In this document: piece by piece, positions 2,109-64,000 of the stretch | Layout of the letters: every line of letters begins with the position of its first letter | Position numbering within the stretch: position 1 is the first letter of the stretch | The notes under the pieces: model-generated | What the model was told of the DNA's origin: nothing | What the model saw: only the letters and a program-made list of their open reading frames with translations | The model's database searches: none | Position numbers and translations under genes: made by a program | NCBI GenBank assembly: GCA_000934665.2 | Contig: JYFJ02009209.1 | Location: forward strand, 62,001-126,000 | DNA length: 64,000 nt | Source of the DNA: Catajapyx aquilonaris | Lineage: Eukaryota | Reading direction: 5' to 3'

Positions 2109-4606
2109 TCATTTATTGCAAACTATTCTGTTGCCCTTTTCGTCCAATCCGTACATTTTGGCCGTCTGTTCTCGCAGCTTGAACTTTTGAACTTTTCCAG
2201 ATGCAGTCATCGGATATTGCTCGGTGAACTCGACGTAACGAGGTATCTTGTAATGTGCAATCTTCTCTTTGCAAAAAGCTCGTATCTCGTCTCCAGTCAT
2301 TTTCTCACCGCTTCTTAAACGAATCCAGGCGCACACTTCTTCTCCCATACGATAGTCCGGGACTCCAATCACCTTTATTTAAAAATAACAATTAAAAAAA
2401 TTAGCATCCGGATAATTACAGCAAGTACTCACGTGTGCTTCCAATACTTTGGGATGCGTGTGCAGAAATTCCTCTACTTCTCTCGGATACACGTTCTCTC
2501 CTCCTCTGATGACCATGTCCTTTTTGCGACCCACGACCTGACCGTATCCGTTCCCGTCCATCACAAACAGATCACTGAAATGTCACAATAATTATTCACA
2601 CAAACTTTTTCCTGTCACAATTACCCTGTCCGAAGCCATCTATCGTCGCCCATAGTCTCAGCTGTCCTTTGTGGATCTCCCCAATAACCCAGCATGTTCA
2701 GGTAACCTCTGACCCATAGCTCTCCAGTGACTCCAATAGGTACAACCTTCCCGTCGTCGTCGACCACTTTTGCCTGAAAAACTGTAGTGTTAATGAACTT
2801 TTTTCAAGTAAGAGCTCTTCCACTATATACCTCGACGTGCTCCATAATGTATCCAACAGATTCGGCCATCTTTTCATCTGTGTCTGTTGCCAAGCTGGCG
2901 TAACTCACTGGACTTGTCTCGGTCATTCCAAAGGCAGACTGATGGAATGACATGAGATCAAACTTGGATAATATATTCTGCCATTAGTTTCTCACCGTAA
3001 TAGCTTTCGGCTTAAACTTTTTCTTCATGTCTCTCATTAGTTCAACGGGACATACAGAGGCGCCAACCAGGAGATGCTTCACACACGACAGATCGTACTT
3101 CTGGATGTCTGGTCTACTCAGGAGATCCACGTACATTGTGGGTACAGCCAGTACCACACTGCATCTAAAGTGTGAATAAAACAACGAAGAATAAATAGGT
3201 GCATTTTATACACAAATAAATCATAACTAACTTGTGATCTTGTATGACTTGTAAGGCCAAGTCAGGCTGGAATGTGGGTGAGGGAATGACGTTTGTGTGT
3301 CCCCGCTGCATTCCTCCAAGCAACAATGCGACGTTGGCAGCAGCGTGGAAAAGTGGTGCACACAACAATGCCTTATGCTGCGTGGGGGTAAAAAAATATT
3401 GAGTAAAATTGACCTCCCCCATTATGATGTCATACTAACATAGCCCTCCATGTTCATCCTCCTTGATAAGCAGATGACATTGTTGACCAAGTTGTGGTGA
3501 GACAATGTGGCTCCTTTTGGGCTGCCAGTAGTTCCCTTTCGAATTGACATATATAATTATTGGTTTAAAAAATTAGAGAGTGTAGACATCGTACTTACCG
3601 ATGTGTACTGGATGTTGGCTGGTTCGTCGCATTGAATCAGTCTCTGAATGTCTTTCACTCTGCTGATGGCCTCGCTGCTTACAGACAATGCCACATCCTG
3701 GAATCGTATGGCTCCCCTGCAACAATGAAGATTTCATGTCAAGTTCATGAGCCAATTGGGAATGCACACAAATTATTCTAATGGTCATTGACTGATTAAT
3801 TATTCAAATAATAAGGCTGACTGAACTGCAATTGCTCGTCAGTCACAACAATGAGTCTCTCCAGAGTCGGGACCTGGTCGCTTCCCATTCCTTTCTCGAT
3901 CCCAGGGGCCGCTTGAAGGGTCAGCTTGTAGTAATCCTGGGTCTTGAACTTGTGGTCGCAAACCACTGCTTTAACGCCAGCAGTGTTCAGGCAGTACCTG
4001 AACTCGGCCGCTTGATACGCAGGGTTTATTGGGACCTGCCCCACCAAAAAATACCTCAGTATAAGTTTGACAGTCTCATTGTTGGGTGTGTCAACCTGAC
4101 CAGTATGAGTCCTGCTCTGGCTGCTGCGAAGTATGTTATGCACCACTGGTACGTGTTGGGTCCCCAGACAACAATGCGGTCGCCTCTCTTCAGCCCCAGC
4201 TCCATTAGTCCTGCTGCCAGTTTGTCGGCCTGGCAACAATCAAAAAATGGTCACCTTTTTGAAACACTTTCACAATAATGCGTTGCACTCACCTCTTCCC
4301 TGATCTGCTGGAATGTCAGCCTCTTATCCCCTGGAACATCAACAATGCAGTCCACATCCGGATACTTCTCCGCGGTCAAGTCCAGCAGTTGACCTACAGT
4401 CATGTTGACCAGCGGGTGTTGGCCAGGATTGTGGACGTAGCTCATGCCATCATTATGGCCCACACTTGAACTCAATCTAAGTAAACACAATTATACACTG
4501 TCCTATAAATCCACAATCAAAATAACTACCTTCTCGGCAGTGGTCCGGTTCTCCACGAATTTCGTAAAAAATTCACCAAAATCTTTCTCGCAGACAGCGA
4601 AATCAT
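2109..4606 (-). CDS. ACSF2: ACSF2-like medium-chain acyl-CoA ligase, copy a, with predicted mitochondrial leader
   Basis: Multi-exon gene. N-terminus [30 protein letters not shown] is Arg/Ser-rich with no acidic residues. AMP-binding motifs: [73 protein letters not shown]. Confidence 0.9.
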
Positions 4607-44118: not shown

Positions 44119-45626
44119 ATGGTGTTAACGAGGTTTGACATAGTTTACGACCGTTCTGTGTCCGTCTTCTTCCCTGGAGAGACGGTGAGCGGTAAGGTGA
44201 TTGCTGTCCTGGACGCCCCCAAGTCAACCACCGGTAAGTGCACTGCTATAGTAACGTTGCAATGGGTACATGTTGCCATATACTGCAGGGATACGTCTGC
44301 GGCTGAAGGGCATCGGTACCGTGTTCTGGCAGGTAGTGAAAGACGAAATGGTGGACTCGAACGACAGGGACGTACCGGAGGTCATCGACTACTACGCCGA
44401 GGAGACATACTGTTCTGAGGAAACGTGGCTGTACGGCGGGCCGGGTACGTACCGCGGTACATAAGGACCAGAGAGATAAAGTAACGCTGGTTTTTTTTTC
44501 AGATGGAAAAACCGTGACGCTTACACCAGGAGAGCACACGTACGAGTTCCATATGAGGCTTCCGGCTGTGCTTCCATCGTCGTTCGAAGGGTCGTACGGC
44601 AGCGTGCGGTACACCCTGACCGCCACCATCGCCAGATCCTGGCGGTTCGACCACAACATCAGAAGAGCGCTGACAGTCAACGCCATTGTTGACCTCAACA
44701 ATGATGCAGAAGCCAGGGTATGACTGTCATGCATGAGTTGGTTCCGTACAATTAATAACTCCACCAAAAAAGATAGCGCCACACAACGAGAACACGAAGA
44801 CGTTCGGATTCTGCTGCTGCCAATCTGGACCACTCAGCATGAAGTTCCATCTGGACAAAGGAGGGTACGTGCCGGGACAAGAAGTTCTAGTCACTGGTAC
44901 TGTCAACAACGGAAGCGACAAGGTCATCAAGAAGGTCACGGCCAGGCTGCATCAGGTCTGTTTCACACGGGGCATAATTGAGCCCCGACTGATGAAGATG
45001 ACTGTTGCAGGTCATAAAATACATCACCATAAAAGGTACGAAGCTGGAGCAGCGTACCCTGTCCCACGTGGAAAGAGAGGCTGTCCCGCCTGGAGGTGAA
45101 CAGACCTGGTCAAATCAGGTGGTCCACCTGCCTCCTATTCCCCCAACAAATCTTGGCTCCGGATGCAACATCATGAATGTCACATACGAACTACAGGTGC
45201 GTACAGAGTTTATCTAAATATTAAATATGAAAAAAATATTAATTTTATATTGTTGTATATAGCTCGACGCCAGCCCGTCAGGCATGGGGTTTGACCTGCT
45301 GGTCACGTTGCCCCTACTAATAGGCAACATTATGCTGAAGCAAGGGGTGTGGCATCCGCCCCCGGGCGGATACGCCCCGGGGCCGACAGTCCCTTTTCCA
45401 ACGCAAGATTATCCTGACCTTCGTAAGCGTATACCGTTTGACAATTGCGCTTCAGCACTCTTGCAAGGTTTTTTTTACAATTACAATTTATGCATTTCCA
45501 GCATCGCCGAGCTATTCTCAGTGCACGTTCGGTCCGAAGAGCATATGTGAAAAGGACGAGAACGAACACTTCGGTGGAGACAAAGAGTACGCGCCGCTCT
45601 ATCCGGTGTTTTCAACCTCACCTTAA
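44119..45626 (+). CDS. Alpha-arrestin (arrestin domain-containing) A1
   Basis: VFFPGETVSG, GEHTYEF..LPAVLPSSFEGSYGSVRY, FGFCCCQSGPL, GGYVPGQ, PPIPPT, LPLLIGN; tail LPSPSY...APLYPVF*. Confidence 0.9.
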
Positions 45627-45741
45627 CATTGTTGCAATAAATATTGTTCATTTGTATACCCATGAATAATAAAGGAAGTTGTTCCTTACTGAATAATAAT
45701 TAAAGGCACGGTTTTATTGCATTGTTTCTACGCGCGTCTTA

Positions 45742-47219
45742 TTACACCATGGCCAATGTAGGGTACATGGGTGTGTACTCCTTGTCGCCTCCGAGGTACT
45801 CAGAGTCACCTTCTTCCCTGATATTTCGAGCACCGAACATGCACTTGGTGTAGTGCAAAGGAGCTGTGAACAAAAGATGCAACGTTACAACAAAGGAAAC
45901 AGACAATAATTATTGACTTACGGAGGTTTGGATGCATGCTGACCGGATGTGTAGGTGCTGATGGCTCTTGAAATGGAGGAACGCTGTCTTGTATCGGTAT
46001 GTTTCCAATGAGAATAGGCATCTTGGATTTCAGGTCAATTGCAAATCCTGATGGAGTCGCGTCAATCTGTGGAAAAAGCTGCAACATGTATTTTTTCTCT
46101 TTTTAATGTTTCGGACAAACGTACCTCCAGCTCGTAAAAGACGCATATGATGCTGCAGCCTCTTCCAAGGTTGGTTGGAGGAATGGCAGGGACAGGCAGT
46201 GGCCAGTTTGACCACACTTGTTCCTGTCCTGGTCTGACGTCTTCAGATCTGCCAGTCTCTGACACTGTCCGAACCTCTCTGTTTGTACCGGTATGCGTTT
46301 GGTACTGGATACACTAAAAAGTACATCAAAAATGTATCGAGAGAGAGAAAAAAATAGGCTGGCATATATGCATTACCTGGTGCAACTTCGCAACAACTCT
46401 ACTGAGATGTTTTCGGCTATGATTGTTGACCACACCGCTGATCAGTATGGTCTCTCCAGGTACGAACCCTCCTTTGTTCAAACTGAACTTGATCGAAAGG
46501 GGACCAGACTTGCAGCACATGCAACCGAACACTTTGCTGTTCTCGCAGCTCGGCACCAACTGAAAGAAGAAAGAACATGGTAAATGTTCAAAAATGGTCA
46601 GTGAACGACAATGACGTACCAGTGCTTGAGGATTAATGTTGAGATCCACTATTGAGTTGATGGTAAATCCCACTTTGACATCATGGTCGAACCGCCATGA
46701 TCTGACTATCTTGGCACCCGCAATGTACCGGACATACCCGTAAATGCCTTCGAAGGAAGACGGAAGCACCTGAGGCAGCTGGAAGGAGTACGGGTACCGG
46801 TGTTCTCCAGCAGGTATGGTCAGTTTGGCACCTGCGAGTTTGGGCAAAAATGCAGTTAGTTTAATTGAGCAACCGGGTCAAAATGGTGCGTACCTGAGTC
46901 ATGTATGAGACAACATTCGAGTGTGAAGTAGTGTTCGGATGCACTGTGGTGGTGGTGATTCTGATAGGTATGGCTGCCCATACGTCGGTTCCTCTCTCTA
47001 GTTGTCCAGGCCACGTAACCACTGCCCTTCAATTGTATCCACACACCTACAGTAAGTACACTGTGTAAGTGCATGTTACGGGTCCATATTAGACAAAAAT
47101 GTACCGGTAGTTTGTTTGGGACTGTCCACTTCAACCAAGACATGACCTGTGATCACTTCTCCTGGGAAGTAAACGGCCACTGGTCGGTCAAACTCTATAG
47201 AAAATTTCTTCAGGCCCAT
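45742..47219 (-). CDS. Alpha-arrestin A2
   Basis: MGLKKFSIEFDRPVAVYFPGEVITG, LPSSFEGIYGYVRY, FGCMCCKSGPL, GGFVPGE; tail LPPLHY...TPMYPTLAMV*. Confidence 0.9.
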
Positions 47220-47913
47220 TGTTGAATCCCGACACTTCTCTGCAACAATGGAAATTGGCGTTATATAGTCAGTCGGACAACTATTGCGCCGTGAGGTCAA
47301 GGTCAACCAGTATATTTGTCAGTTTTCCAAGTGCTGGCAGCTATAATAGTTTTCCGATGTTTGGAGGACTATAGCGATATACCCAACGTCTGACCTACTT
47401 CATGGCCATCACACGCGTCTAAATTTAGATTCGCACGCAAAAAATTAAGTACTGCAAAATTCCGTGTTTTTTTTTGCTTGTAAAATTAATATGAATAATT
47501 ACAGACGTTAGGCAATTTATTCTATTATTGCAGTGGGTAAGGTGAACATACCCAAGCGACTCTGCCTGATAGCAACCAGATTGCAAACACTAGGCAACGA
47601 CTATAAAAATAGGATCGTAAACCCCTATAAAATTGGCGCAAAAAAACTCACTTGCTAATCCTGAGGAGGTCACTTCTTAACAGCAACACAATATCATGCA
47701 CTTGAGAATTTTGCATCAGTGTTGTCAGTCCTGTGTACGTACTTAAGAGTGTGGCCTTGAGTGGCAGAGGGCGTCGCTTGTATTTTTTTTTGCACAACTA
47801 CATATGAGTTTGCGGGCTTCAGAAGACCTCTAGCGAGAAGATGCAGAACCATTTTTGTTCATATTCGCACGTGAAGGTTTGAAACATATGTTTGGATATA
47901 TTTTTATTTGCTT

Positions 47914-49330
47914 TTATTGAAACATGTCGTATCCGTTATGCAACTTGTGTCCGTTCACTTCCGCAACCCTGGGTCCCGATGGCTGCATCCCAATATTGCC
48001 TATGACCACCGGAAGGACCAGCCTAAAATCTGAGGATCCCGTAGCAGTTGGAGAGGCGTCGAACTGCAGCGGAAATTTGCACAAAAAATAAAATTATTTG
48101 CAATCTAAAACTCTTGTAGTGACCGCCCGCACTGACCTCAAGTTCGTAGTAGACGTTGATTATGTTGCATCCGATACCCAGGTTGGTCGGAGGCACGTCC
48201 GGCACGTACATGGGCACGTCTGGCCACACCTGGTCCTGACCCGGGTTGACCTGACCTTTACCCGTCTCGACTAGTGTCCTCACTTCCAGTTTAGTCTTGG
48301 ATTGCGCCTGGTACCAAACGCACTGAAACGCAACAATTATTCTGTACCATCTGCCGTACGTATATAGATTGAAGAGACTGACCTGATACAACTTGGCCAC
48401 GACCTTCTTGATGACCTTGTTGCTTTGGTTGTCGATCACAGCATGTATGAAAATGTTCTCTCCTGGCACGAACCCTCCCCGATTCAGATTGACCTTGACC
48501 GATATGTGTCCAGAGGTGCACCAAACGCATCCAGTGGTCTTGGTCACTTCGTTCTGGGGAGCCAACTGCAAGGTCGTCAGCATTGTCTTTGTGGATGGAA
48601 CAATGTACGTGAACACAACTCACCCGAGCCTGCCCGTTGATGTTGAGGTCAACAATGGAGTGTACAGTGAACGGTTCCTTGCAGTCGTGGTTGTGCCTCC
48701 AGGTCCGTACTATCATTGCGTTTGCGGTGTACCTGACGTACCCGTGGGTACCCTCGAATGACGACGGTAGTATGGGAGGAAGGGCGAAGGTGAAAGGGTA
48801 GTAGTGAGTGCCCGAAGGTATCACAAACTTGCCTCCGACACCTGCAAAGAAATTATCGTCCAAAAAAATATCCGCAGTAACGACACTCAGAAACGTACCA
48901 AACCCTCCAAACAGACAGTTTTCGTAATGAAAGTAAGTCTCCTGCGCCGAGTAATGCCTGGTATGACTTTTTCCAGCATGACTAGATTTCTTGCTCAGAT
49001 GCTCTTCAGTCCAAGCCACGTGACCAGTTCCCTTCAGCTGAATCCAAACGCCTGAAATTATTTCAAATTATACTGTACAGTACAACAAAAATTGTGCACA
49101 GCATACCTACATGAACTTGGTGCAATGTTGCCAATACTTGTCAAGCAGGAACTACAGTTATAATTGTACAACCCCCTTAGGGAAAGATTGGTCCTTGAAA
49201 GAATTAGGTACGCACCGTTTGTCTCTTCCGGACTGCTGACCACAACCACCACGTGCCCTGTGACCATCTCTCCTGGCAGAAAGACGGCCGAGGTCTGATC
49301 GAACTTGATCGCGAACTTCACCAATCCCAT
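47914..49330 (-). CDS. Alpha-arrestin A3 (no PY tail)
   Basis: MGLVKFAIKFDQTSAVFLPGEMVTG, LPSSFEGTHGYVRY, GCVWCTSG, GGFVPGE; ends LPVVIGNIGMQ...NGYDMFQ*. Confidence 0.88.
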
Positions 49331-49813
49331 GCTAATCAAACCAGAACTAAATTAAATAACCAGCAGCTAATTAGCACAACTTACATTGATTAGAGTCGAA
49401 CCATTCCGGCGGTGAGGGCCAACAGTGTTGTTGTTATGACCTGTTTGTTCTGCTGTTGTGGACTCAACCAAATGCTAGAGGGAGACATAGGTGCAGACTA
49501 AGTCACACTACGCCTTTTTTTCAAGGCTGATTGCGAATTGAGCTGGGAGGGGAAGGGGAGAAAAGAAGGGCAGGTTTTTGCCCATGCTGACCTTGGAGGA
49601 AGGCAAAGAAAGGCGTAATTTTCCCACCGGTTGTCAACGGGTGTCCACCTCAATCTGGAATGTGCCCCCGTGCATATGTGTAGCAAAAAAAAAAAAAAAA
49701 AAAATCAATGCCAATTCTTTTGCCAATTTCTTGCACGAAGTTCAAATTTTGTTAGAGAGTGTATATTGATGTAAATATAATTGGGCAGCATATGTTACAC
49801 CTGACGCAAACTA

Positions 49814-51060
49814 TTAATTGCTGTCTACTTTCGGCGGTTCAGGAGCCGGCTGTTGTCCAAACACATGACACAAAGGAACCAACTCTTTTCTTCCCCGGAC
49901 ATGATCACCGTCACTTTCTTCTCGTATGTTCCTCTGTCCGACCTTACCCTGGGCGTAAGTCGGCGGGGCTGGATATTAATTGTGCAGAAAATTAGGATGA
50001 TTAACAAGCGGGAGGCGTAATTAACCTCCTGAGACCCGGAGTACAGTATACTGTACCTTTGTGGTTTTTACGCGTTTTAGTTAGTCAGAAAGGTACAGTA
50101 TACTGTACCAGGGGTCTCAGGAGGTTAAGACATGACTTACCTTGGTATTGCTGACCTGAAATCGGTGGTGCAGTCGGAGGAGGTGGCTGTAAAGGTGCAT
50201 TATAAGGGACGTAAGGTGCCGGAACAGGGACGTAGCCAGGTGTATGGACAGGGGAGTAGCCAGATTCAGGTGCAGGCTGTTGCTGTGGTACCACCATAAA
50301 TGGTACGTTGCCAATAATGACCGGAAGATTCAACTTCAGGTCGAGGGCTGCACCTGACGGAACTGCTACGATCTGTCATCGAGACACACTTTGTACTACA
50401 TCCAGCCTAACAATTGCCGGGATTTGTCGCACTTACCTCGAGGTCATAGAACACGTGGATGATGCCGGTAGACTGTATCCCCAGGTTAGTCGGTGGGATT
50501 GGAGGGACACGCAGGGTCACTCGATTGGGACTCTGTAGGTCCGACCCGGCCTCTATCGGATTTTGCAACTGTCTTAGCCTCACTCTTGGTTCCGTCGCGG
50601 GCTATGTATCGGATATTCTGTGTATATAGGACACACCGAATATACATGAGATCACTTTAACTCATCCGGATTAATCAGTGTGTTTACCTGTTCCAGCTTT
50701 GCTTCGACACGAGCTATTTCGCGGTTACTCTGGTTCTGAACTACTCCTGTGATCAGGATGCTCTCTCCAGGAGCGTACCCTCCTTTGTCCAGGCCGAACT
50801 GGATGGACAGAGGTGCGGACTCGCAACAGCAGCAACCAAAAGTCTTATCGGTCTCACTATGAGGCGCCAACTAATAAGAAATGGACAGTGGAAAATCTGT
50901 TTTTTACCATGATTTCCAACTGAAACCGGTATACTGTCTGGACTTTTCTGACTGTTATTATGACAATGGATTTACCCGAGCTTGAGGATTGTAGTTGAGG
51001 TCAGAAATGGCGTTGACGGTGAAGAGCTTCTCTTGGTTGTGGTCGGAGAGCCAGGAGCGT
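49814..51060 (-). pseudogene. Alpha-arrestin A4: 5'-truncated and frameshifted
   Basis: Starts abruptly mid-exon (RSWLSDHNQEKLFTVNAISDLN) with no N-terminal exons. An ~8-nt deletion near 50525 (the QVWDRV segment of paralogs) gives a premature TAA. A MITE sits in the last intron. Confidence 0.85.
50021..50128. mobile_element. piggyBac-type MITE (100 bp) with TTAA target-site duplication
   Basis: TTAA(50021-50024) CCTCCTGAGACCC...GGGTCTCAGGAGG TTAA(50125-50128). TIRs are 36 bp with 3 mismatches. The element is absent from the homologous A6 intron. Confidence 0.88.
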
Positions 51061-51165
51061 AATTATCATGACTTACGGATGCCTTTGGTATTGTTGACCC
51101 GGAAATGGTGGAGCCATAGGCGGAGGAGGGGCAGGGGGTAGACAAGGGGCGTATCCAGCGGCGTA

Positions 51166-52540
51166 CTATTGCTGTGACATTGCCATTATTGGTACGTTAC
51201 CAATAATGACCGGGAGGTTCATCTTCAGGTGGGAAGCTATTAGATCATTAGACCTGATTGCTCTGATCTGTCGAGACACACCGAGTTAAGCTGTGTTCAC
51301 ACATATAGGGTTACACGTACCTCGAGGTCATAGGTGAAGTTGATGATCCTGCATGATATCCCCAAGGTGGTTGGAGGGATTGCTGGAGGGACAGGCAGGG
51401 GCACACGATCCCAGACTTGCTCTTCTGTAGCTTTGATTGGTCCTTTTTCGGTTTTTGCCAATGTCCACTCCTCAGTCTTGGTTTCATCACTACAGCATTG
51501 GTCTGGGACTCGGTACCGGAGACGCTGACATACGGAGGTATCGTATGAGGTCACTTTAACTCAACAGGATAAAAATATGAGGCCATTACCTGATTCAGCT
51601 TTACTCTGACCCGAAATATTTCGCGGTTACTCTCGTTCTGAACCACTCCGCTGATCAGGATGTTCTCTCCAGGTACGTACCCTCCTTTGTCCAGGCTGAA
51701 CCTGATGGACAGAGGTCTGGACTGGCAGCAGCACCAACCAAAAGTCTTTTTGTTCTCACAATGAGGAGCCAACTATACAGTAATAAGAAATGATGAATGT
51801 CCAGCCAGCAGCAATGAAGAAAGCATTTTTGCAATAATTGTTAATCAGTTGGGCTACACTTCACTTGAAGTCAGAGAGGAACTGAACGAGTAGCCCTCCT
51901 TTCTGGACTATTCTGACTACGCTATTATCACAATGGGTTTTACCCGGGCTATCGGATCGGCGTTGAGGTCAACAAGAGCGTTGACGGTGATGTTCCGCTT
52001 GACGTGGTGGTCCAAAAGAAAGCACCGGACAATCCAGGCTTTGGCATTGTACCGGATGTAACCTCTGGAGCCTTCGAACGAAGACGGAATCCCCGGAGGA
52101 AGGACGAAGGAGAACTGGTACTGATGCTCTCCTGGAGGTATGGTGTGCCTTTCGTCCTGGCTACCCATCAGCCAAGTGTTCATGGAGCAGTAAGTCTCAT
52201 CCGCAGAGTAGTGCACTGTGATAGTTTTTATTATTATCGCAATCTTCGAGGCTTCTTTAGCCCACCCGCCCCCAAAATTAGCGGAGGGTAAACTTACCCT
52301 TTCCGGTGGACCAGTGGACGTGACCATATCCTTCCAACCGGAATTGCACACCTACGGGGTGTCATATAATCATGCTTATCGATTTGCACTCCTTGATCAG
52401 GAAACAGCGAAGAATTTTGACTCACCGCAGGCATCCTTTGGACTATCGACCCTGACGATGACCCTTCCAGTGACCATTTCTCCGGGGAAGAAAACGGGTA
52501 CTTGGCGGTCAAACTCGATCGCGAATCTGGTCAAAACCAT
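51166..52540 (-). CDS. Alpha-arrestin A5 (extra intron; premature stop before the Pro-rich tail)
   Basis: MVLTRFAIEFDRQVPVFFPGEMVTG, IPSSFEGSRGYIRY, FGWCCCQSRPL. The frame requires splicing of 52297-52216. Ends LPVIIGNVPIMAMSQQ* (TAG at 51168-51166). Confidence 0.75.
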
Positions 52541-52876
52541 CGCATTACCTGACATGAAAGTATAATTAAAGGAAAAAGCAAAATGTTGTGTTCAACAGGT
52601 GGAAACCCTATTACGAACATACATATTGTAGCAATGTGAGGAGGGTTGCCAGGAGAACAGTGTTGGAAGGCAACATACTAAGCAACTGTCGAATGATATA
52701 TTAAGGAAAAAAGTTCTCAGTGGACAATAATTTACCTTCAGTGGTGCAAGCTGAAGAACGCCCAGTAAATCAGAATTTCTGCAGTTCTTACGGTAATTTA
52801 TTTATTCAAATTCAACATTGATGGAGACAGATGGATTCGTGCCTAATTGCAACATATTTCACCGGATAGCAAACAT

Positions 52877-54482
52877 TTAATTAATAGCTCCCTTTGGTGG
52901 TGCCGGAGCCGGCTGTTGAAACACAGGGTACAAAGGAGCGAACTCTTGGTTTCCCCGGACATGTTCACCGTCGCCTTCTTCACGTATGTTCCTCTGCCCG
53001 AACATGCACTCGGCGTAACTCGGCGGGGCTGTGCAGAAAAATTGCGATTAGCATGATTAGCATCGAGAGGCATTATTAGACATGACTTACGGAGGTCTTG
53101 GTATTGTTGACCTGGAAATGGAGGAGCAGTCGCAGGAGCGGCTGCTGGAGCCTGTAAATGGACAGGGGCGTAGCCAGATGGTTGTGCAGGGGGGTAGCCA
53201 GAGCTAGGGGCAGGGGGGTAGCCATGTGCTTGGGCAGGGGCGTAGCTAGTTGCAGGGACAGGAGCATACTGTTGTTGCGGTACGGCCATTATTGGTATGT
53301 TGCCAATAATGACAGGAAGTGTCAGCTTCAGGTCAAAGGCTATACCTGAAGGAGTTGCGTCGATCTGTGGAGACACACCTATAGTTAAGTTGATTCCACA
53401 CTGAGGCTTTGGTTACGTGTATACCTCCAGGTCGTAGGTCACGCTGATGATGCTGCATAATATCCCCAAGTTACTTGGAGGGATCGGAGGGACACGCAGA
53501 GCCACGTGTTCCCAAACTTGTTCTTCTGTAGCTTTGACCAGCCCTCTCTCGGTTTGTGCCACTGTCCTCTCCTCAGTCTTGGTACCGTTACGAGCTTGGT
53601 ACCGAATACGCTGTCGGGGCATACGCAGGTCACTACAAATCGATCTAGATTAATCAGTGTCATTACCTGATTCAGCTTTGCTTTGACCCTCACTATTTCG
53701 CGGTCACTCTCGTTCTGAACCAATCCGCTGATCAGGATATTTTCACCCGGGACGAACCCTCCTTTGTCCAGACCGAACTTGATGGACAGAGGTCTGGACT
53801 CGCAGCAGCAGCAACCAAAAGTCTTCATGTTCTCACAATGAGGAGCCAACTAATAACAAACAGTGGAGATGACATTTTGCACAGCATTGCTGCACTTATC
53901 AAACGGACTTACCCGAGCTTGCGGATTGGCGTTGAGGTCAGCAATGGCGTTGACAGTGAGTGCCTGCTTGACGTGGTGGTCGAATCGCCAGGACCGGACA
54001 ATACTGGCCGTAGCAGTGTACCGGACATACCCATGTGAGCCTTCGAACGAAGAAGGAAGCACCGAAGGAAGGACGAAGGAGAACGGGTACTGATGTTCTC
54101 CAGGAGGAATGGTGTACCTTCCGCCCTGGTTGCCCATCACCCATGTTTCCAGTGAGCAGTACGTTTCATCCGCCGTGAAATGCTCCGTATGAGTGTGGTG
54201 ATGGTCACGACGACCGTGATCGTGATGGCGATCGTGATGGCGTTCGTGACGCTGACGTGTTTCGGTCCAGTGCACGCGACCAGATCCTTCCAACCGGAAT
54301 CGCACACCTATACAGGATCGTGTTTAATTGATCGCTACTTCTTGATCAGGCAACAAGATTGACTCACCGCAGGCATCCTTAGGCCTATCCACGCTGACGA
54401 TGACCCTTCCAGTGACCATTTCTCCAGGGAAGAAAACGGTCACTTGGCGGTCATACACGACCGTGAATCTGGTCAGACCCAT
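52877..54482 (-). CDS. Alpha-arrestin A6 (His-rich loop, intact PPSY tail)
   Basis: MGLTRFTVVYDRQVTVFFPGEMVTG, RQRHERHHDRHHDHGRRDHHHTHTEH, LPSSFEGSHGYVRY, FGCCCCES, GYPPA-type repeats, DLPPPSYAECMFG...APLYPVF. Confidence 0.92.
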
Positions 54483-55521
54483 TGCCAGCACCTGAAGTGA
54501 AAAACTCCTGTAAATGTCACCCACTTATCATAGGCGATAAGAACGCGATAACCGGTTCCTCTAACATCATTTACAGCACCCTCGCACGCCCAACCAAGTT
54601 TCAATGCCACAGGTTTCCTGGTAAAGCCATGCACTCTTCAAGGTCCCCAGTTCGCGGGGGAAAACCAAGGGGGGGAAATGAGGATAGGTTTTGAATATTG
54701 CTCACTCCAGCAACCTATTAGGCACCAATCCCAACTGGGTTTATTCAGGCTGCTAGGGTGAACAATCACATTCAAATGAAGCGCGTGACCTTGGCTGGTG
54801 CACAATCCTGAGAATAATAGCAAAGCTGCCAGAGTGAACAACAGTCGCATTTCCGATGATATATTCGTAATTATGGGCAACAGCACACATATTGCAATCA
54901 TTTAAATTATGAGACTATAGTTACCGTACCTGGGAATAATTCTCGTGTGACAGCGATTCCACCGAGTCGGCTGCTGGGTATCCCGATTGCCATTGAGCTC
55001 TCGGTCTTAATAACACTGACTGTTGCGTGCGATTAGATAACGGTATCGTGTGATTCACTGAGAAGCTAGCCATAGGCTGGATGTGTACGTACGTATAGTG
55101 AAACGTAACATCCGCCGTTTGCACATGACTCGGGATTATGGCAAAAAAGTGACGACTCATTATCCGGTGTTCAGTTTCGAGTGGCTCGTGTTGGATGACT
55201 GTGTCAGCATCTCCCAATATTCGCCAATGATGCTATATAAAATAAAAGCACAATCATCTGAGTAACACTCTACCAAGTAATAATTATCCTCTCATATAAT
55301 GTATCAAAATACACATGTACCGGTATACAGAATGCCTCAACATTTTTATTGAATAAAAATCATTGAAATGGGGAGAGATAGATTTTCTTTGAGTATGCCT
55401 ATGTGCAGCAAGTACAACAATTAATTATTATTAGTTTCATGTTTAGGGTGATGGATCTAGCCACTTCCTTAGGAGTGTCCAAACGAGGTCCGTTACTAAA
55501 ATTGTGTTCGTCAGTCAGTCG

Positions 55522-56744
55522 TCAGTCGAAGTTACCAATGATGAGCGGGAAAGTCACCATCAAGTGGTAACCTGCACCTGGTGGAGTTGCGTCGATCTGT
55601 CGATACAAAAGTTGTTGAATTCAGCACAACTCCCCGTGTGACTCTACATAACGAGTGTACTCACCTCCAATTCATATGCCACCTTTACAATGCTCTGGTG
55701 TATCCCAAGGTGTGACGGAGGCACGACCGGTACATCCAGAAGCACGTCGTTCCAAACTTGCTGGCATTTAGCTGGAACCATCCCTCTATGGATGCGAACC
55801 AAGGTTTTCTCTTCTAACTTGACACCGTTCAGGGCTTTGTATCGTACACACTGTATACATACGCCCAAATAAAAAGGTCATGCACAAGGGGGGGTCGGAG
55901 CAGCTAATTACGTACCTGCTTAAACCTTGCTTTGACCTTCTTTATTGGTCGTCTGGTGTCGTTCTGGACCGTCCCGTTGATGCAGATGCTGTCTCCTGGC
56001 ACGTACCCACTTCTGTTGATTCTGAACTTCATGGACACTGCCTTTGTTTTCCAGCAGCAGATTCCGAACTCTTTTGCGTTCTCCCTGTCCACGAACCCCT
56101 ACAAATTGTCATATCCGTGAAATGTACAAGAAAAACACTAAGGATCATCCATTTACCGCAGATTGCAGATAATATGAATGCTTGACAATCGCCTCGACTC
56201 TGAATGGATGCATGACGTGGCTGTCGGACTGATTCGACGGTCGCACGATGCTGGCCGTAGACATGTACCGGACATACCCATGCGACCCTTCGAACGACGA
56301 TGGAAGTACCTGAGGGAGTTTGAATGAGAAACGGTACGCTCCATGTCCTTCCGGCAACGTGACCTGTCCGCCTTCGTTTCCCAAAAGCCATTTTTCCATC
56401 GCTAAATAATGTTCCTCCCCCGAGAACACCTCATCTTGGGAATCCTCCTCACAAATGTCACTTTTGGGGTACGGAATAATCTGATTGATACTGGTGATGG
56501 GCACGGTGATTTTGGGCATCATGGGTTGCGTCCATTCGACTCGAGCTTTTCCTTGAATCCGAATTCGCACACCTGCTGGGGTCATCATGATTATAATATA
56601 CATAACTGTCCAAAAAAAAAGTAACTCACCGCAAGCTTCCTCAGGACTGTCGAGGGAGACGATGACCTCGCCTTTGATCCAATCATCAGGATAAAACTCT
56701 TTTCCTTCCCTATCGAACAAGATTTTGAAACTCAACAGACCCAT
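55522..56744 (-). CDS. Alpha-arrestin A7 (no tail)
   Basis: MGLLSFKILFDREGKEFYPDDWIKG, LPSSFEGSHGYVRY, FGICCWK, GYVPGD; ends FPLIIGNFD*. Confidence 0.88.
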
Positions 56745-57148
56745 TCAAAGTCAACCATCACACCAGCCAATTGTTAATAAAAATATGAATGATTAGACCA
56801 CATAGACGCCTATCTCCAGGTAACAGCACATTCGCAGTCACTGCAGGATAACTCCCCCCAAAAAAATAAAGCCAAGGGAGGCGCCTCCAGTTTATTACAG
56901 GAGACTGACAGCTCCAATAAAATTTTTTGCCAAAATCCAGTTGTTGAGAGTGAACCTTGCAACAATCGGACAGAAGTATATAACAGAAGCCAAGATGTCC
57001 CAATATATTTCATCTACTACATCTGAGCCAGTTGCTTGTCTCCATCCCAATATTCTACGGATTTTTCTGTCGGACTGAACATGATGTAGGATGGTTGGCC
57101 TGGAAATGTACGAAATTATTTTGTTTATTTATTTACTATTGAATATTA

Positions 57149-58552
57149 TCACAAACACGCGGATGTGTCCAACCCACCTGAGTGAGGTGCTGGGTCCTGA
57201 TGACCTCCTGGTTCAAATAGTGCTGGGTCAGTGGCCTGTACAGATGGGGAATGCGGTTCGGACGCTATACACGGTGGGGTCAAAGGTCGTCTGCCAGCTG
57301 CCGAGTCATCATTGAGACGTTCGGTGCCTACGAGGACAGGAATCTGTAGCTCGGCTTTATCTTCGAAGCCGTCAGGTGTGGCCTGAATCTGTTCAGAAAA
57401 AAATAAAGTTACTCAAGAAATTACTGTCCGTAGTTATTAACAGTGTAAATTACCTGCAGCTCGTATCTGACTCCGATAATGCTTTCGGGTATGCCCAGAT
57501 CGGTCGGAGGAAGCGGAGGAACACGTATGGCCACGTTGCTCCAGACCTGTTCGCTTCTAGCTTCAATCCGACCTCTCTCCCCTTGATACACGGTCCTCTG
57601 GGTCTTCATCGTCGTGTTGTTCCCAGCTCGGTACCGTAAAAACTACAACCGTTCAACTGTGTGGTACACATTGCCTATAGATATACTAACCTGTACAAGC
57701 ATCATTGTTATCCGATGAATTACAATGTCGCTCCTGTTATGAACCACCCCGTTGATCAGTATGTTCTCTCCAGGCACGTACCCACCTTTGTTCAATCGCA
57801 GGTTGAAGAGGAGTGCTTCAGAGCTGCACCAGCACCATCCCAACTCGGCCATTTCGTCGAAGTGAGGCACCAGCTGAGCATACACGATTCATGTCAACTT
57901 ATTGGACTCGTATACTGTATGTATAAATTACCTTGGCTTCCACATACGTGTTGAGGTCGACCGTGGCGTTGACCGTGAATGGCTTGTCGGCAGTCAGGGC
58001 CTTCGGGTCATTCCGCAAGGATCGGACCAGTATCGCCTTGGCCGTGTACCGAACGTATCCGTACGCGCCTTCGAACGAGGACGGCAAAGCGACAGGCAAC
58101 GTGATCGCAAAAGGGTAGCAGTGGTCAGCAGGCGTTTCCGTGAAGGTCATCGTTCCGGGAAAGAACTGTACTCCCCGCATTATCCTGTACTTGGCTCCTA
58201 GTGTACGCACAGTGAGATGACGAATCAGGTGCACAATTATTGCCCCGCTTAATTTACCTGGACTGCCTATTATCCAGTCTTCGATGTAGCAGAACATTTC
58301 GTCTTGACTGTGCTTCTCCTCCTTAGTGTCGGTCCACTCCACGTGTCCTGTTCCTTTCAATTGGATTTGAATACCTGCGAAGTATAGTTTCAAGTTTGGG
58401 TAATGATGGCACCTTCTGTTGACTATGAACTTACCACAAACTTCGTCCCCATATTTGTCGACTCCAAGTATGACTCTTCCTCGCACCTCTTTCCCAGGTG
58501 AGAATGTGGCCACAGGTCGGTCGTACTCTATCCTGAATTTGGTCACGCCCAT
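57149..58552 (-). CDS. Alpha-arrestin A8
   Basis: MGVTKFRIEYDRPVATFSPGKEVRG, LPSSFEGAYGYVRY, LGWCWCSS, GGYVPGE, IPVLVGT. Tail has no PPxY; the 3' end is uncertain. Confidence 0.85.
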
Positions 58553-58660
58553 TGCCGCGTATGTGTTTAAAAAAAAAAGTATCCGCACTATATGACAGAT
58601 TCTCACAAGAAATTTTGAAGTACGAACAAAAGAAAGTGTGTTGCCAGGCAAAAAGACCCG

Positions 58661-60392
58661 TCAATCGTCAAGTGGCGCAACAAAGAGTGGACTCCTTGGT
58701 CGCTGTCTACGTTCCTGAACCATCGAAACAAGATCGCGTCTGGAAATTTCGGAACTAGCCAACATCAGCTCGTCCCTGGCTTCGCGAAGGCAGTCGGAGT
58801 AACTTGGATGAGCTGGAAATAATTTAAGAAAAAAAAATGGCCGCGTCACCGTTGCAACAATGAGTGGACATGATTGTTATCTACGTACCCTGCTGCTGCA
58901 GCTGTTGGAGGTGATGCAGCAGCGAAGCAACTGAGCGTCTGAATGTTTCTACGGGTGTCTCTCTCAGTCCTTCCTCGCTCTCGGAGTCACTTGGAGTAGC
59001 TGCGGAAACGAAGAAGACAATGACGTTTAACAAACACATGCTGCGTGATTGGGAAGTGTGTATACGCATATTACTCTCAGGGCGCTTCTTCTGTTTCCTG
59101 CTGGATGTTGTGGAGTGACCGGTTGTAATAGACGGGACTGTGGCAGAATGGACAGAAGCTGTGGCAGGATTCAGCGGAGTGATGTTCCGGGCCTCTCTCA
59201 GTGGGATGGTGCCAATGATGACAGGAAGACGGGCGATTAATCTGGTCCACCTGTAGGCAGGCTTCGCCTTAATCTATACTCAAAAAAAGATCCGAAAATT
59301 AGTATAAGAAATGTCTGTTACATTTTTTTTAAAACCTTCAGCTGGTATCTGACTCCGATGATGCCTCCGGACATCCCGAGATCGGTCGGAGGAACAGGAG
59401 GGACAAGGAGGGCCACGTCTGTCCAAATCTGCTCACTTCGAGGTTCAATCCATCCTATGTCTTCCTCTATGAGAGTCTTGCGCTCTTCCACCGACTCCTT
59501 GGACCCGAATTTCTGGTTGTACATAATAACCTAAAAACACGACAACTGCATGACACCATTATTAAGCAACGTTGTCCAACTAACCTGCTGTAGAGACACG
59601 ATGACTCGTTGTATCTCTCTGTTGCTCCGGTTCTTGGCTATTCCGCTGAGCATGATCGTTTCTCCTGGCACGTAACCTCCTTTGCTCAAGCGCATGTTTA
59701 CCAATAGGGGACCAAAATTACACCAATCAAGCAGCTTTAATTCAAAACATTCTGGCGCCAGCTGAAAAGTGTTGGTCACATGCTGTTTCATCGACTAAAA
59801 AATACACACACGAATTTTGGCATATCAGTGTTACCCTGGCTTCCACGTTGGTGTTGAGGTCACATTTGGCCTCGACCTTGAAGGACTTCTCTGCCGTATT
59901 TTCTGGGTTCGACAAACAGAAGATTGTGGCTTTGGCAGTGTATCGAACGTGTCCATACGGACCTTGGTACGACGAAGGAAGCACCGACGGTAACACGATC
60001 GCAAACGGATATGTTATTTCACCTGATGGTATTGCACCTGAAAGACGTTTTATTTACATTCAATTTGTGTGAGGCACCTTTTTTATCAATATTACCTTGA
60101 ACCTCCAACCATGTTTCGATATTGCAATACACTTCGTCATTCCTGCACCTTTTCTTGATGCCGAACTTTGAGTATGACCTCTCCACTTGTCCGGATCCTC
60201 TAAGAAGCAATTGCAAGCCTGAAATAATGAGATCAGATTCAGATATTTCTCGAACACTTGTATTGCGTTTAACTTACCGCTCACTTCCTTGGTGCTGTCG
60301 ACGCTCAACACGACTTTTCCGCTGATTTCTTCACCCGGGTAGAACACTGCCCCGGGGCGGTCAAACTCGACGGAGAATTCTTCATTATCCAT
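58661..60392 (-). CDS. Alpha-arrestin A9 (two homologous terminal exons)
   Basis: MDNEEFSVEFDRPGAVFYPGEEISG, LPSSYQGPYGHVRY, GGYVPGE, LPVIIGTIPL; tail exons TTPSDSES... and AHPSYSDC... Confidence 0.82.
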
Positions 60393-60792
60393 GTCAGGAC
60401 ACAATCTTGTGCCCATGTCCTCAGTAAAACGATTTGTGGGAATCCTTACGCAATCCTCTTCGTAAAAAAAAACAAGAGGGTCGGAATTTCGAATGTCTCA
60501 CCAGCTACTCCAAAATGTAAACAAAGTGTAGCCAAAGCTATTGCTTCTATGACCTTAGCTCACTGAATATTAGACATTTTCTCCTGTGCCATACGATTAT
60601 TTCATCCTTATCATGCTGACATTACAGTGGAATTGCTCTAAAGTGTATCAGCAGCTTAGTCGTGTATAACTTACCACAAGCTTCGTTACGTACATGGTCG
60701 AAGGTAATGTGTGCACTCTGACAGATTCACTTATGGTATTAAAAAAAAGACGTAAAACCAAGTTTGGTGTACTTATTATTTTGCTATGTACA

Positions 60793-62290
60793 TTACTGCT
60801 GTAGCAACAGCTCCTGATGCAGCGAAGCAATAGTTCGTCTGAATGTTGAGTACGTTGACTCCCTCATTCCCATAGTGCTCTCGGAGTAACTTGGCGGAGC
60901 TGGAAATGAAAACGCCAACAATATAGAGTGCTTGGGAAGTTGCTCTTTGTGTCTCTTTAATCTTGCAAGGGACACTTACAGTCTGATAGCCAGGCCTCAC
61001 TCCTGATGGGTGCTGTGGAGTCACCGGCTGGAGCAGGTGCTGGTTGGTCAGAAGGGACAGAAGCTGTGACAGGAGTCAGCTGACTGGTGGTGTTCCTGGC
61101 TTCTCTCAACGGGATGGTGCCAATGGTGATAGGAAGACAGGCAATTAATTTGGTAAACCTGTAGGCAGGCTTCACCTTAATCTATACTCAGAAGATAAGG
61201 TAATTATTAAGTGTGGATCCTGCTGGTACATTTGTTGCATTTTCACCTTCAGCTGGTATCTGACTCCGATGATGCCTCCGGACATCCCAAGATCGGTGGG
61301 AGGAACAGGAGGGACAAGGAGGGCCACGTTTGTCCAAATCTGCTCACTTCGAGGTTCAATCCGGCCTAGGTCTTCCTGCAAGAGAGTCTTTCGCTCCTCT
61401 ATGGCTGTCTTGACTCCGGATTTCTGGTTGTACCGGAAAACCTGATGGGGACAAATAGGTGACACTTTGCACGTTGTTCAACTAACCTGCTGCAGAGTCA
61501 CTGTGACTCGCTGTATCGCTTTGAAGCTGCTGTTCCTGGCTATTCCGCTGAGCTTGATCATTTCTCCTGGCACGTAACCCCCTTTGTTCAACCGCATGTT
61601 CACCAATAGGGGTCCGAAACAACAACAATCAAGAAGCATTAATTCCAGACATTCTGGCGCCAGCTGAAAGTGTCACCTGCTGCTTCTGTGATCAAACTAG
61701 ATGATAGGAATATCAGTATATAGTTATACCCTGGCTTCCACGTTGGTGTTGAGGTCACATTTGGCCTCGACCTTGAATGCCCTCTCTGCGATACGATCGG
61801 GATTCGACAAACAGAAGATGGTGGCTTTGGCAGTGTATCGAATGTGTCCTTGCCAACCTTCGAACGACGAAGGTAGCATCGACGGTAATGTGATTGCAAA
61901 CGGATACGTTGTTATTTCATCTGATGGTATCGTGTGAACCTGATAGTCTGCAAGAGGGTTTACTTTATACTCAACTTTCATATATATTTTACTCATTACC
62001 TTCAACCTTCAACCAGGTTTCGACATTGCAATACACTTCGTCCCTCGTGCACTTGTGCTCGGTCCCGAACTTTGTGTTGGACCACTCGACTTGTCCGGAT
62101 CCTCTCAGCAGCAATTGCAAACCTATGTACAATAATAATGCTCAGGTGTATTTCTGGAGGCTGCGTAGTACTTACCGCTCACGTTCTTAGTCCTGTGTAC
62201 GCTAACCATAATTTTTCCACTGACTATTTCTCCGGGGAAGTACATTCCCCCGGGGCTGTCAAACTCGATGGAGAACCTCTCATAAACCAT
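60793..62290 (-). CDS. Alpha-arrestin A10 (PPSY retained)
   Basis: MVYERFSIEFDSPGGMYFPGEIVSG, LPSSFEGWQGHIRY, LDCCCFGP, LPITIGTIPL; last exon SPPSYSES...LLLQQ*. Confidence 0.88.
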
Positions 62291-62545
62291 GTCAGGAACC
62301 ACCTCTGTTCCTAAGTAGTCCAGGAAAATATTCATAAAGGATAACGGGGGGAATGCCTGTGTGCGCAAGAAGCAATTTAGAATTTATCAGTATAGCTACA
62401 CCGAGGTGTAAACAAAGTATAGCCAATCATGCTGATGCGCACCGGATCTTCATGTGACACATATTCGCGGATTTAGGAGCTGGAAATGAAAACGACAACA
62501 ATGCCAAACAAATTTTTTTTTAATATGATTTTTTTTTGTGTACGA

Positions 62546-62642
62546 GCGCAACCGAGTGCGCACACACACTCGCTCAAGTCCATCATGGGATAGTGTATAG
62601 GAAACCATTTGCGCAGAGTGTATGCTGCGCACTCGGTTGCGC
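62546..62642. repeat. Inverted repeat (17-bp perfect arms, imperfect inward extension)
   Basis: GCGCAACCGAGTGCGCA (62546-62562) and TGCGCACTCGGTTGCGC (62626-62642). Confidence 0.85.
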
Positions 62643-62707
62643 ATCCCGCGATTTTATAGTCTCCCGGGGGGACGACTAGCGCTTTCTTTTCGCCGTCTAT
62701 TAAACTC

Positions 62708-62780
62708 GTCCCTGTGGCGCAGTGGATAGCGCGTTGGACTTCTAATCCAAAGGTCCCGGGTTCGAATCCCGGTAGGGATG
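62708..62780 (+). tRNA. tRNA-Arg, anticodon TCT, intronless
   Basis: GTCCCTG/TAGGGAT acceptor stem, A box TGGCGCAGTGG, anticodon arm TTGGA-CTTCTAA-TCCAA, T arm CCGGG-TTCGAAT-CCCGG, and a downstream T-run terminator. Confidence 0.96.
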
Positions 62781-62973
62781 CGTCCATTTTTCTTTTTAAA
62801 CGTCTCATAATAATTATTCGTAACGGAGGGATTGGCTACACTTTGCTTATGGAACTTTGGAGTGACTGTTCTGGGGAAATTCTGTTGCTTTTTCCGCAGA
62901 GGATTGCGCGTAAGGATTCCTGTTCTTATATACGTTTGCATTGAGTAAGCATTGCGTATGGTTCGTTCCTGAC

Positions 62974-64000
62974 ATGATGGATTATAAGAGGTTCTCGATC
63001 GAGTTTGATCGCCCCGGGGCAGTGTTCTACCCGGGACAAGTAGTCAGTGGAAAGATTATGCTGAGCGTCAAGAGAACTAAGAAAGTGGACGGTAAGTTAA
63101 ATATACGATTATCGCCTGCAGATATACATGAACTAGATTATTGCAGGCTTGCTATTGCTGTTAAAAGGATCCGGACAAGTCGTGTGGTATAGCAAAAAGT
63201 TTGGGACCAAGCATCAGATGTGCATGAAGGACGAAGTGTATTGCAATATCGAAACCTGGTTGAAGGTTGCAGGTATATGTATAATGGTTGCCAGTGAGAA
63301 TGACGATCGAAATAATTTGAATAAATGAAACCTATTGCAGGTCAAGTGCACACATTACCATCAGGTGTAATAACAACATATCCGTTTGCGATCGTGTTAC
63401 CGTCAGTGCTTCCTTCGTCATTCGAAGGACAGCAAGGACGCGTTCGATACACGGCCAAGGCTACGATCTTCCGTTTGTCGAAGCCCGACCATACCACAGA
63501 AAAGGATTTCAATGTCGAGGCCAAATGTGACCTCAACACCAACGTGGAAGCTAGGGTAACTATAGCACTGATATATGCCACATTTTTCATTTATTTTTGG
63601 TGACCAACACTTTTCAGCTGGCTCCAGAATGTATGGAATTAAGGATGCTTGATTGTTGTTGGTTCGGCCCCCTATTGGTGAACATGCGGTTGAACAAAGG
63701 GGGTTACGTGCCAGGAGAAACGATCTTGCTCAGCGGAATAGCCAAGAACCGCAGCAACAAAGCGATACAACGAGTCACAGTGACTCTGCAGCAGGTTAGT
63801 TGGACAACGTTGCTAAATGGCAGCGGTGTCATGCACTTGTCGCGTTTTAGGTCATCCGGTACAACCAGAAATCCGGCGGCAAGGTGTCGTCAGAGAGACG
63901 CAAAACTCTCTTACAGAAAGACCTAGGCCGGATTGAACCTCGAAGTGAGCAGACTTGGACAGACGTGGCCCTCCTTGTCCCTCCTGTTCCTCAGACCGAT
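62974..64000 (+). CDS. Alpha-arrestin A11, inverted paralog of A9/A10; runs off the window
   Basis: MMDYKRFSIEFDRPGAVFYPGQVVSG, LPSSFEGQQGRVRY, LDCCWFGP, GGYVPGE, LLVPPVP; exons stay in frame to the edge. Confidence 0.9.

Follow-up and report, generated by a model that had tools for sequence, protein, structure and literature searches.

Alpha-arrestins are adaptor proteins that tag membrane proteins for cellular uptake, the ubiquitinating enzyme normally being recruited through their tail. Lineage-specific expansions of this family have been reported for Caenorhabditis elegans, Drosophila and Trichoplax (PMC3971589, PMC2515105). Trichoplax sp. H2 has 23 alpha-arrestins, 17 of them in one tight cluster for which defence through endocytosis was proposed (Kamm et al. 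2019, PMC6321704). The sets of Drosophila (12) and C. elegans (29) are mixtures of PPxY-bearing and PPxY-less members (PMC10945707, PMC5657022, PMC2515105, PMC3971589), 8 of the 12 fly proteins carrying the motif (PMC10945707). Ligase binding depends on this PY motif, with PY mutants remaining at the plasma membrane and being more abundant (PMC3517545), and enrichment of WW proteins was seen only for PPxY-bearing alpha-arrestins of fly and human (PMC10945707). We analysed a stretch of 64,000 nucleotides (nt) from Catajapyx aquilonaris (GenBank assembly GCA_000934665.2, contig JYFJ02009209.1, contig positions 62001-126000, forward strand; referred to as the window), in which a tandem array of alpha-arrestin genes starts at position 44119 and continues beyond the window's end.

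We show this array to have been shaped by tandem duplication, deletions and one inversion, with purifying selection on the two-domain core of the encoded proteins, near-neutral evolution of their tails and repeated loss of the PY motif. We explain this, with a probability of about 70%, by relaxed subfunctionalisation of trafficking adaptors, i.e. an ordinary lineage-specific alpha-arrestin expansion in which local unequal recombination would multiply the copies and deletions would prune them.

Family searches of the 286-Mb assembly, in which the window contig is labelled C6324, gave at least 48 Arrestin_N and at least 46 Arrestin_C exon matches. The 29 stretches covering these matches (labelled L001 and onward) were retrieved and modelled with a spliced profile aligner written for this study, which was seeded with eight of nine search matches and iterated on the genome's own copies, the exon boundaries then being curated by hand. 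From 44119 to its end the window holds 11 loci (A1-A11; Table 1): nine with clean open frames of 324-434 amino acids (aa; A1-A3 and A6-A11, with A11 completed from the contig), the doubtful A5 and the pseudogene A4. The ten codable copies contain 55 introns, every one of the GT..AG type, with a median length of 60 nt (range 45-171); A1 and A11 lie on the forward strand and the remaining nine loci on the reverse strand. An earlier note on this DNA had described at least 11 alpha-arrestins on both strands, continuing past the edge. This observation is confirmed and the array is larger than claimed, comprising 24 loci over 65 kb up to contig position 171286 (A17, a half-gene, among them) and, in front of A12, an orphan tail exon. 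The note's count of ten codable copies and one pseudogene stands for A4 and nine clean copies, A5 being doubtful: it has an early stop codon in the tail, its last exon is gone through a deletion that fused its final donor with A4's middle part, and its frame needs an 82-nt intron present in no other copy. A4 itself starts inside the N-domain exon, 14-17 nt past A5's final donor. One aligner run also proposed a 43-nt intron for A5 and a 90-nt GC-AG one for A6, which were discarded as artefacts or less likely.

Further alpha-arrestin clusters are found on the same contig (5 loci) and on contigs C2003 (10), C2771 (2) and C1475, with singles elsewhere, the genome total amounting to 41 full-length modelled copies, with several fragments and three broken copies in addition; exon edges are uncertain in the models of A19, A21 and D8-D10. 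Core identity among copies ranges from 30% to 77% (30-59% between subgroups). Since a near-duplicate of A6 is absent from the genome (next-best match 67%) and the closest window pairs show a synonymous divergence (dS) of 0.25-0.48, assembly or allelic duplication as the source of the array is ruled out. One short contig carries a near-copy of D9, possibly an allele and not a separate locus.

A domain search scored Arrestin_N or Arrestin_C in six of the seven array exon open reading frames scanned, the exception being a Pro-rich tail exon, and both family searches and spliced models give the order Arrestin_N followed by Arrestin_C. Searched against the Protein Data Bank (PDB), exon 2 of A6 matches ARRDC3 with E 1.3e-10 and beta-arrestin with E 0.62, and the tree places the copies with ARRDC3/17-like proteins, so that they are nearer to alpha-arrestins than to visual/beta-arrestins.

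For the phylogeny, a FastTree analysis of 228 rows (45 own and 183 outside proteins of 290-600 aa) leaves the expanded copies free of intervening outside proteins (support 0.83). An IQ-TREE analysis of 79 rows, with pseudogenes and two near-duplicate locust rows excluded, unites the 41 copies (95/93), A1-A12 (100/99), A8-A12 (100/100) and A9-A11 (100/99), and in a separate analysis A4-A6 are supported by 88 in the SH-like approximate likelihood ratio test (SH-aLRT) and 0.99 in the approximate Bayes test (aBayes). The subgroups A4-A6 and A9-A11 of the earlier note hold, and the lineage-specific monophyly that it named as a supporting outcome is found. The sister group consists of the sampled insect and springtail proteins, and forcing A1-A12 together with 12 insect-clade rows is rejected by the approximately unbiased (AU) test (p-AU 0.0018). 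The 22 full-length array copies do not form one clade apart from the other clusters. Two of three divergent, partly modelled genes (C4463, C1334, C1172) entered the trees and fall outside the expansion; C1172 is a likely orthologue of worm ARRD-6 (E 1.7e-16 over 60 aa) and a separate gene outside it, and a match on C9 is without model. With best outside proteins for the window copies at 35-46% identity, the expansion appears lineage-specific as far as sampling shows, the outside set including two springtail and three crustacean rows and no close relatives.

The lineage-specific clade contains young and old duplicates alongside pseudogenes, and relics are present as the A4 pseudogene, the A5/A4 deletion, the orphan tail exon and the half-gene A17. 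Because of these deletion relics, the inversion and the pseudogenes, we conclude that the array undergoes birth-and-death turnover, as the earlier note had supposed. The orphan tail exon before A12 bears a PY motif and its upstream exons are absent; a second PY-bearing tail exon, downstream of E1, is either a relic or an alternative last exon. Past the window lie two oppositely oriented copies of a multi-kb segment, 90-97% identical and with an internal 2.1-kb inverted repeat; the segment is likely a mobile element or a recent duplication, which could drive rearrangement of the array. Upstream of A9-A12 we found a shared 14-nt element, a candidate promoter element, with three exact matches in the window (chance 7/100 shuffles when up to two mismatches were allowed), which is common to A11 and A12 despite a dS of about 1.06. 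In A9 and A10 the element continues into TGTTTAC, a putative forkhead/FOXO site. AATAAA follows within 200 nt of the stop codon in 8 of the 11 window copies and is absent there in A5, A9 and A10, counted without chance control.

Selection was analysed with codon models in our own code (F3x4) as the ratio of nonsynonymous to synonymous rates (omega), and site tests compared M8 with M8a. Core omega is 0.52-0.55 for the A9-A11 pairs, 0.44 for A5-A6, 0.32-0.43 for A13-A15, 0.26 for L1-L2 and 0.23 for D1-D2, and is significantly below 1 in 21 of 25 pairs, the exceptions being A4-A5 (0.82) and three C2003 pairs (D3-D5, D8-D10, D8-D9). Values of about 0.3-0.55 are high for a conserved family, yet below 1, and the label "rapidly evolving" given by the earlier note is weakly supported to that extent. 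The tails of A9-A11 are near neutral (omega 0.73-1.17). For A1-A12 (11 copies, 227 codons away from gaps) the M0 omega is 0.284 and twice the log-likelihood difference between M8 and M8a is about 0. Nine sets were tested, and none of the six array sets is significant, the lowest p values being 0.060 (A9-A11) and 0.066 (A8-A12). Simulations on the A1-A12 tree gave detection in 10/10 runs with omega 3 at 5% of sites and in 10/10 runs with omega 2 at 10% of sites, against 0/10 false positives, this power being demonstrated for the 11-copy set only. The aligned array core is hence under relaxed purifying rather than recurrent positive selection, and maintenance of the copies by purifying selection is supported. 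Tail-less terminal branches are not more relaxed (omega 0.34 versus 0.28, p 0.25), with individual values ranging from A3 (Table 1) over A12 (0.43) and A5 (0.47) to A7. We draw no conclusion from the apparently lower omega of copies lacking the strict PY motif (0.29 versus 0.51, p 0.01), as branch age confounds it; the pairs A2-A3 and A1-A6 were unused owing to saturation (dS about 25), as was a likelihood ratio statistic of 47 for the A9-A11 tails, an optimiser failure.

On contig C2003, young pairs among D8-D10 and D3/D5 reach omega 1.36, 1.16 and 0.81, a signal that stems from positive selection or, alternatively, from neutral decay combined with errors in the models; the D8-D10 cluster is a better candidate for diversifying selection than the window array.

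Loops were assigned by sequence alignment to PDB chains (ARRD-6, PDB 7USY). ARRD-6 has a Cys-rich C-edge loop, which was described as a membrane anchor, possibly palmitoylated (PMC9605866); a cluster of Cys residues opening the C domain in our copies, including the CCCC-containing loop of A6, aligns with it, and the variable segments of exons 2 and 4-5 correspond to crest loops by the same alignment. The N-crest loop, spanning 10-33 residues with a mean identity of 0.22 in A1-A12, is the most variable part of the proteins, yet no more so than in the alpha-arrestins of other animals (0.22 and 10-44 residues among 47 proteins of the hexapod-containing clade). The varied cargo-facing loops of the earlier note are thus weakly supported, being equally variable elsewhere. 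The sole region clearly more variable in the array is the C-edge loop (identity 0.35 versus 0.53 and 0.51 outside), which contains at least two Cys in 9/11 of A1-A12, 5/11 of A13-A24 and 45/47 outside hexapod-clade proteins. In A13-A15 the entire Cys-rich loop is deleted, the frames being open and two copies carrying the strict PY motif. A6 has a 30-residue His-rich N-crest loop, with shorter His runs in A2 and A3 and a similar His-rich loop in a thrips protein (P0034); these loops are possible candidates for metal binding.

These data bear on a defence or stress repertoire, in which copies would diversify to recognise and remove pathogen-exploited or stress-related membrane proteins. The size of the array, omega of about 0.5 in young pairs, the variable C-edge loop, the His-rich loops of A2 and A6 and the D8-D10 signal (on another contig) are in line with it, and the same idea was put forward for the Trichoplax cluster, with no functional test in the available text (PMC6321704). 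We consider this reading unlikely given the non-significant array site tests, the ordinary variability of the crest loops and the little effect on lifespan of knocking down 24 of the 29 C. elegans alpha-arrestins, which was read as possible redundancy (PMC5657022). The interpretation of the earlier note is hence partly supported: its defence role is unsupported, and its term "combinatorial" finds no support, each copy being self-contained with its own full exon set, the copies lying on both strands and no shared or swappable exons being seen.

In the tails, the strict (P/L)PxY motif is present in three of the ten codable window copies (A6, A10, A11) and in the A4 pseudogene, whereas the site is degenerate in A1, A2, A8 and A9 and the tail is absent in A3, A5 and A7. 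For these seven copies no hidden PY exon was found by a search recovering 10/10 strict-PY controls; hidden PY exons in tail-less copies were rejected within 600-nt introns, with the exception of L5, whose model was corrected to PY-positive. Genome-wide, 11 of 41 full-length copies carry the motif after this correction and 30 do not, compared to 75 without and 108 with it among 183 outside proteins under the same rule, many of these being partial and the counts not independent. On the tree, at least eight changes of the strict-PY state are needed (counted before the L5 correction), and the varied ligase coupling suggested in the earlier note finds its counterpart in these variable tails. A second, (Y/F)APxYP-like motif, noted before in alpha-arrestins (PMC2515105), is kept in A1, A2, A6, A16, A18, A24, E1 and E2. 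As PY-less members occur in the family (PMC10945707), the sequence-based alpha-arrestin membership of A1, A2, A3, A5, A7, A8 and A9 stands, without establishing them as "NEDD4 adaptors". The genome does contain HECT-domain genes, with the NEDD4 type not singled out among them.

Such tails could also mean that PY-less copies are kept to compete with PY-bearing ones for cargo and shield it from removal. Most alpha-arrestins here would then be ligase-uncoupled and selected to serve as decoys or stabilisers anchored at the membrane, and the surface time of transporters and receptors would be set by the differing Cys-rich loops and by the numbers of tailed relative to tail-less copies, an activator/inhibitor repertoire within one array. 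The high share of PY-less copies, the repeated state changes, the purifying selection on tail-less copies (A3, L1-L2, D1-D2) and the behaviour of PY mutants at the membrane (PMC3517545) are compatible with this, but on long branches the tails may have been lost recently, WW domains may still recognise the degenerate motifs, common cargo of tailed and tail-less copies is only presumed, and the PY-less fly proteins (4/12) and human ARRDC5 have other partners, a decoy role not being demonstrated for them (PMC10945707). We regard both the competition and the repertoire built upon it as doubtful. Mostly neutral turnover with one or two working copies and the rest redundant and decaying is very improbable, since pseudogenes, relics, near-neutral tails and the four pairs not below 1 are outweighed by uninterrupted frames and canonical splicing signals in copies only 30-59% identical between subgroups, by the 21 constrained pairs and by the exact 14-nt element preserved between A9-A11 and A12 at dS of about 1.

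Under relaxed subfunctionalisation, by analogy with the family, each protein would act as a cytosolic adaptor docking at the membrane via its Cys-rich C-edge loop and gripping membrane cargo. The PY-tailed A6, A10 and A11 would recruit a NEDD4-family ligase, resulting in ubiquitination and internalisation of the cargo, and A1, A2 and A8 would perhaps do so through degenerate or second motifs, whereas the tail-less A3, A7 and A12 would still bind membrane or cargo with no direct ligase recruitment, as more stable scaffolds or modulators. Copies would most likely have been retained by splitting tissues, stages or cargo under relaxed constraint and not in an arms race. Several points weigh against this explanation. 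The gene models are known from genomic sequence alone, with expression and cargo of the copies presumed, and the omega estimates rest on our own code, validated by simulation only. The site tests dropped the indel-rich loops, and episodic selection is outside their reach; the signals for A8-A12 and A9-A11 are borderline, and the D8-D10 clade on C2003 is significant (p 0.0016), as is an overlapping set containing it (p 0.002). Omega near 0.5 in young pairs could equally mean copies drifting toward death, and, with no close relative sampled, the lineage-specific expansion may be an old, order-wide one.

The stop codon of a dynein heavy chain gene, whose GC content at third codon positions is 0.87-0.88 compared to 0.51-0.70 for the arrestins, lies about 580 nt ahead of the array. 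The array is followed by an FBPase gene; beyond A12 it is broken by genes of other families (Table 1). Among the best 120 matches listed for the window's RIO2 exon, those named are insect proteins with 66-73% identity, none of them close.

Table 1. Loci of the array and associated features (window coordinates unless a contig or retrieved stretch is given).
Feature	Position	Strand	Description
A1	44119..45626	+	379 aa, 7 exons; tail exon present, SPSY at the degenerate first PY site, intact second PY-like motif YAPLYP
A2	45742..47219	-	372 aa, 7 exons; tail present, first PY degenerate (PLHY), YTPMYP intact; His run in N-crest loop
A3	47914..49330	-	334 aa, 6 exons; tail exon absent, stop overlapped by AATAAA; terminal-branch omega 0.14
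A4 (pseudogene)	49814..51062	-	5' half deleted, frameshift near 50521; PPTY still in tail
A5 (doubtful)	51166..52540	-	309 aa; both domains intact only with private 82-nt intron
A6	52877..54482	-	434 aa, 6 exons; strict PPSY and FAPLYP; Pro/Tyr-rich tail
His-rich N-crest loop of A6	54197-54280	-	in exon 2
A7	55522..56744	-	324 aa, 5 exons; stops directly after C domain, tail absent; long branch, omega 0.52
A8	57017..58552	-	388 aa, 7 exons; degenerate tail exon (QPSY)
A9	58881..60392	-	379 aa, 7 exons; TPSD at the lost PY site; last acceptor uncertain by few bases
A10	60793..62290	-	378 aa, 7 exons; strict PPSY
A11 (inverted copy)	62977..64000	+	389 aa; runs to contig position 126537, 537 nt beyond window; strict PPSY
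14-nt upstream element, A9	60522..60535	-	about 105-146 nt before ATG (all four copies)
14-nt upstream element, A10	62413-62426		
14-nt upstream element, A11	62832-62845		
14-nt upstream element, A12	L001 ~4105-4120		
tRNA-Arg(TCT)	62708..62781	+	between divergent A10 and A11
Rest of window	1401-43540		Srw-like seven-transmembrane G-protein-coupled receptor, GroES-like dehydrogenase, RIO2, F-box/leucine-rich repeat (LRR) gene, ATP-binding cassette transporter, dynein heavy chain
Orphan tail exon before A12	L001 4170-4290	-	PY-bearing
Ionotropic-receptor-like, EcKL (ecdysteroid-kinase-like) and LRR genes	L001 5202-6734, L001 8378-9410, L002 7796-9422		inside array, past window
A13-A15	contig 134098-146574		C-edge loop deleted
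Inverted duplicate segment	contig 138099-144442 and 151787-154756		
2.1-kb inverted repeat	contig 138993-141134		
Orphan tail exon downstream of E1	C2771:19581-19799		PY-bearing
D8-D10	C2003:23061-29674 (L016)		
D3, D5	C2003:4826-12802		
Near-copy of D9	C13145:5-982 (L027)		

Our literature search found no paper on a Catajapyx alpha-arrestin cluster, and two genome papers on early hexapods (PMC6938034, PMC4987106), whose supplementary family-expansion tables could bear on novelty, do not use the word "arrestin" in their main text. Near-consecutive accessions on one contig in mussel, tunicate and cockroach and double-length models in mayfly, beetle and two nematodes suggest tandem alpha-arrestin copies to be common. 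The fly genes CG18744-CG18748 presumably form another such tandem. The copies share both arrestin domains and the PSSFEG motif region with ARRDC3/TXNIP-type and insect "ARRDC17-like" proteins, ARRDC3 being the best PDB match and the insect proteins the sister group; they differ by an identity of only 35-46% and by tails shortened or lost in many copies. With C. elegans ARRD-6 the Cys-rich C-edge loop is alignable, the likely orthologue of this protein in Catajapyx being the separate C1172. Like the Trichoplax cluster the expansion is lineage-specific, and it differs from it as an independent expansion in another phylum with about twice the copies, the available Trichoplax text containing no selection or PY analysis (PMC6321704). 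The Drosophila and C. elegans sets are likewise lineage-specific and mixed in PPxY content; here, in contrast, PY-less copies form the majority (30/41) and one-to-one orthology to sampled insect proteins is absent. Invertebrate alpha-arrestin clusters being already known, the present evidence reveals no new system, and the Catajapyx expansion stands out by its size and its PY-less majority. The series of tailed, degenerate and tail-less copies (A9 versus A10/A11; A5 versus A6; A3 versus A2) is a natural one for probing the function of PY-less alpha-arrestins, and with at least 41 full-length copies compared to 12 in the fly, Catajapyx provides an unusually large arthropod case which extends the known pattern of invertebrate expansions.

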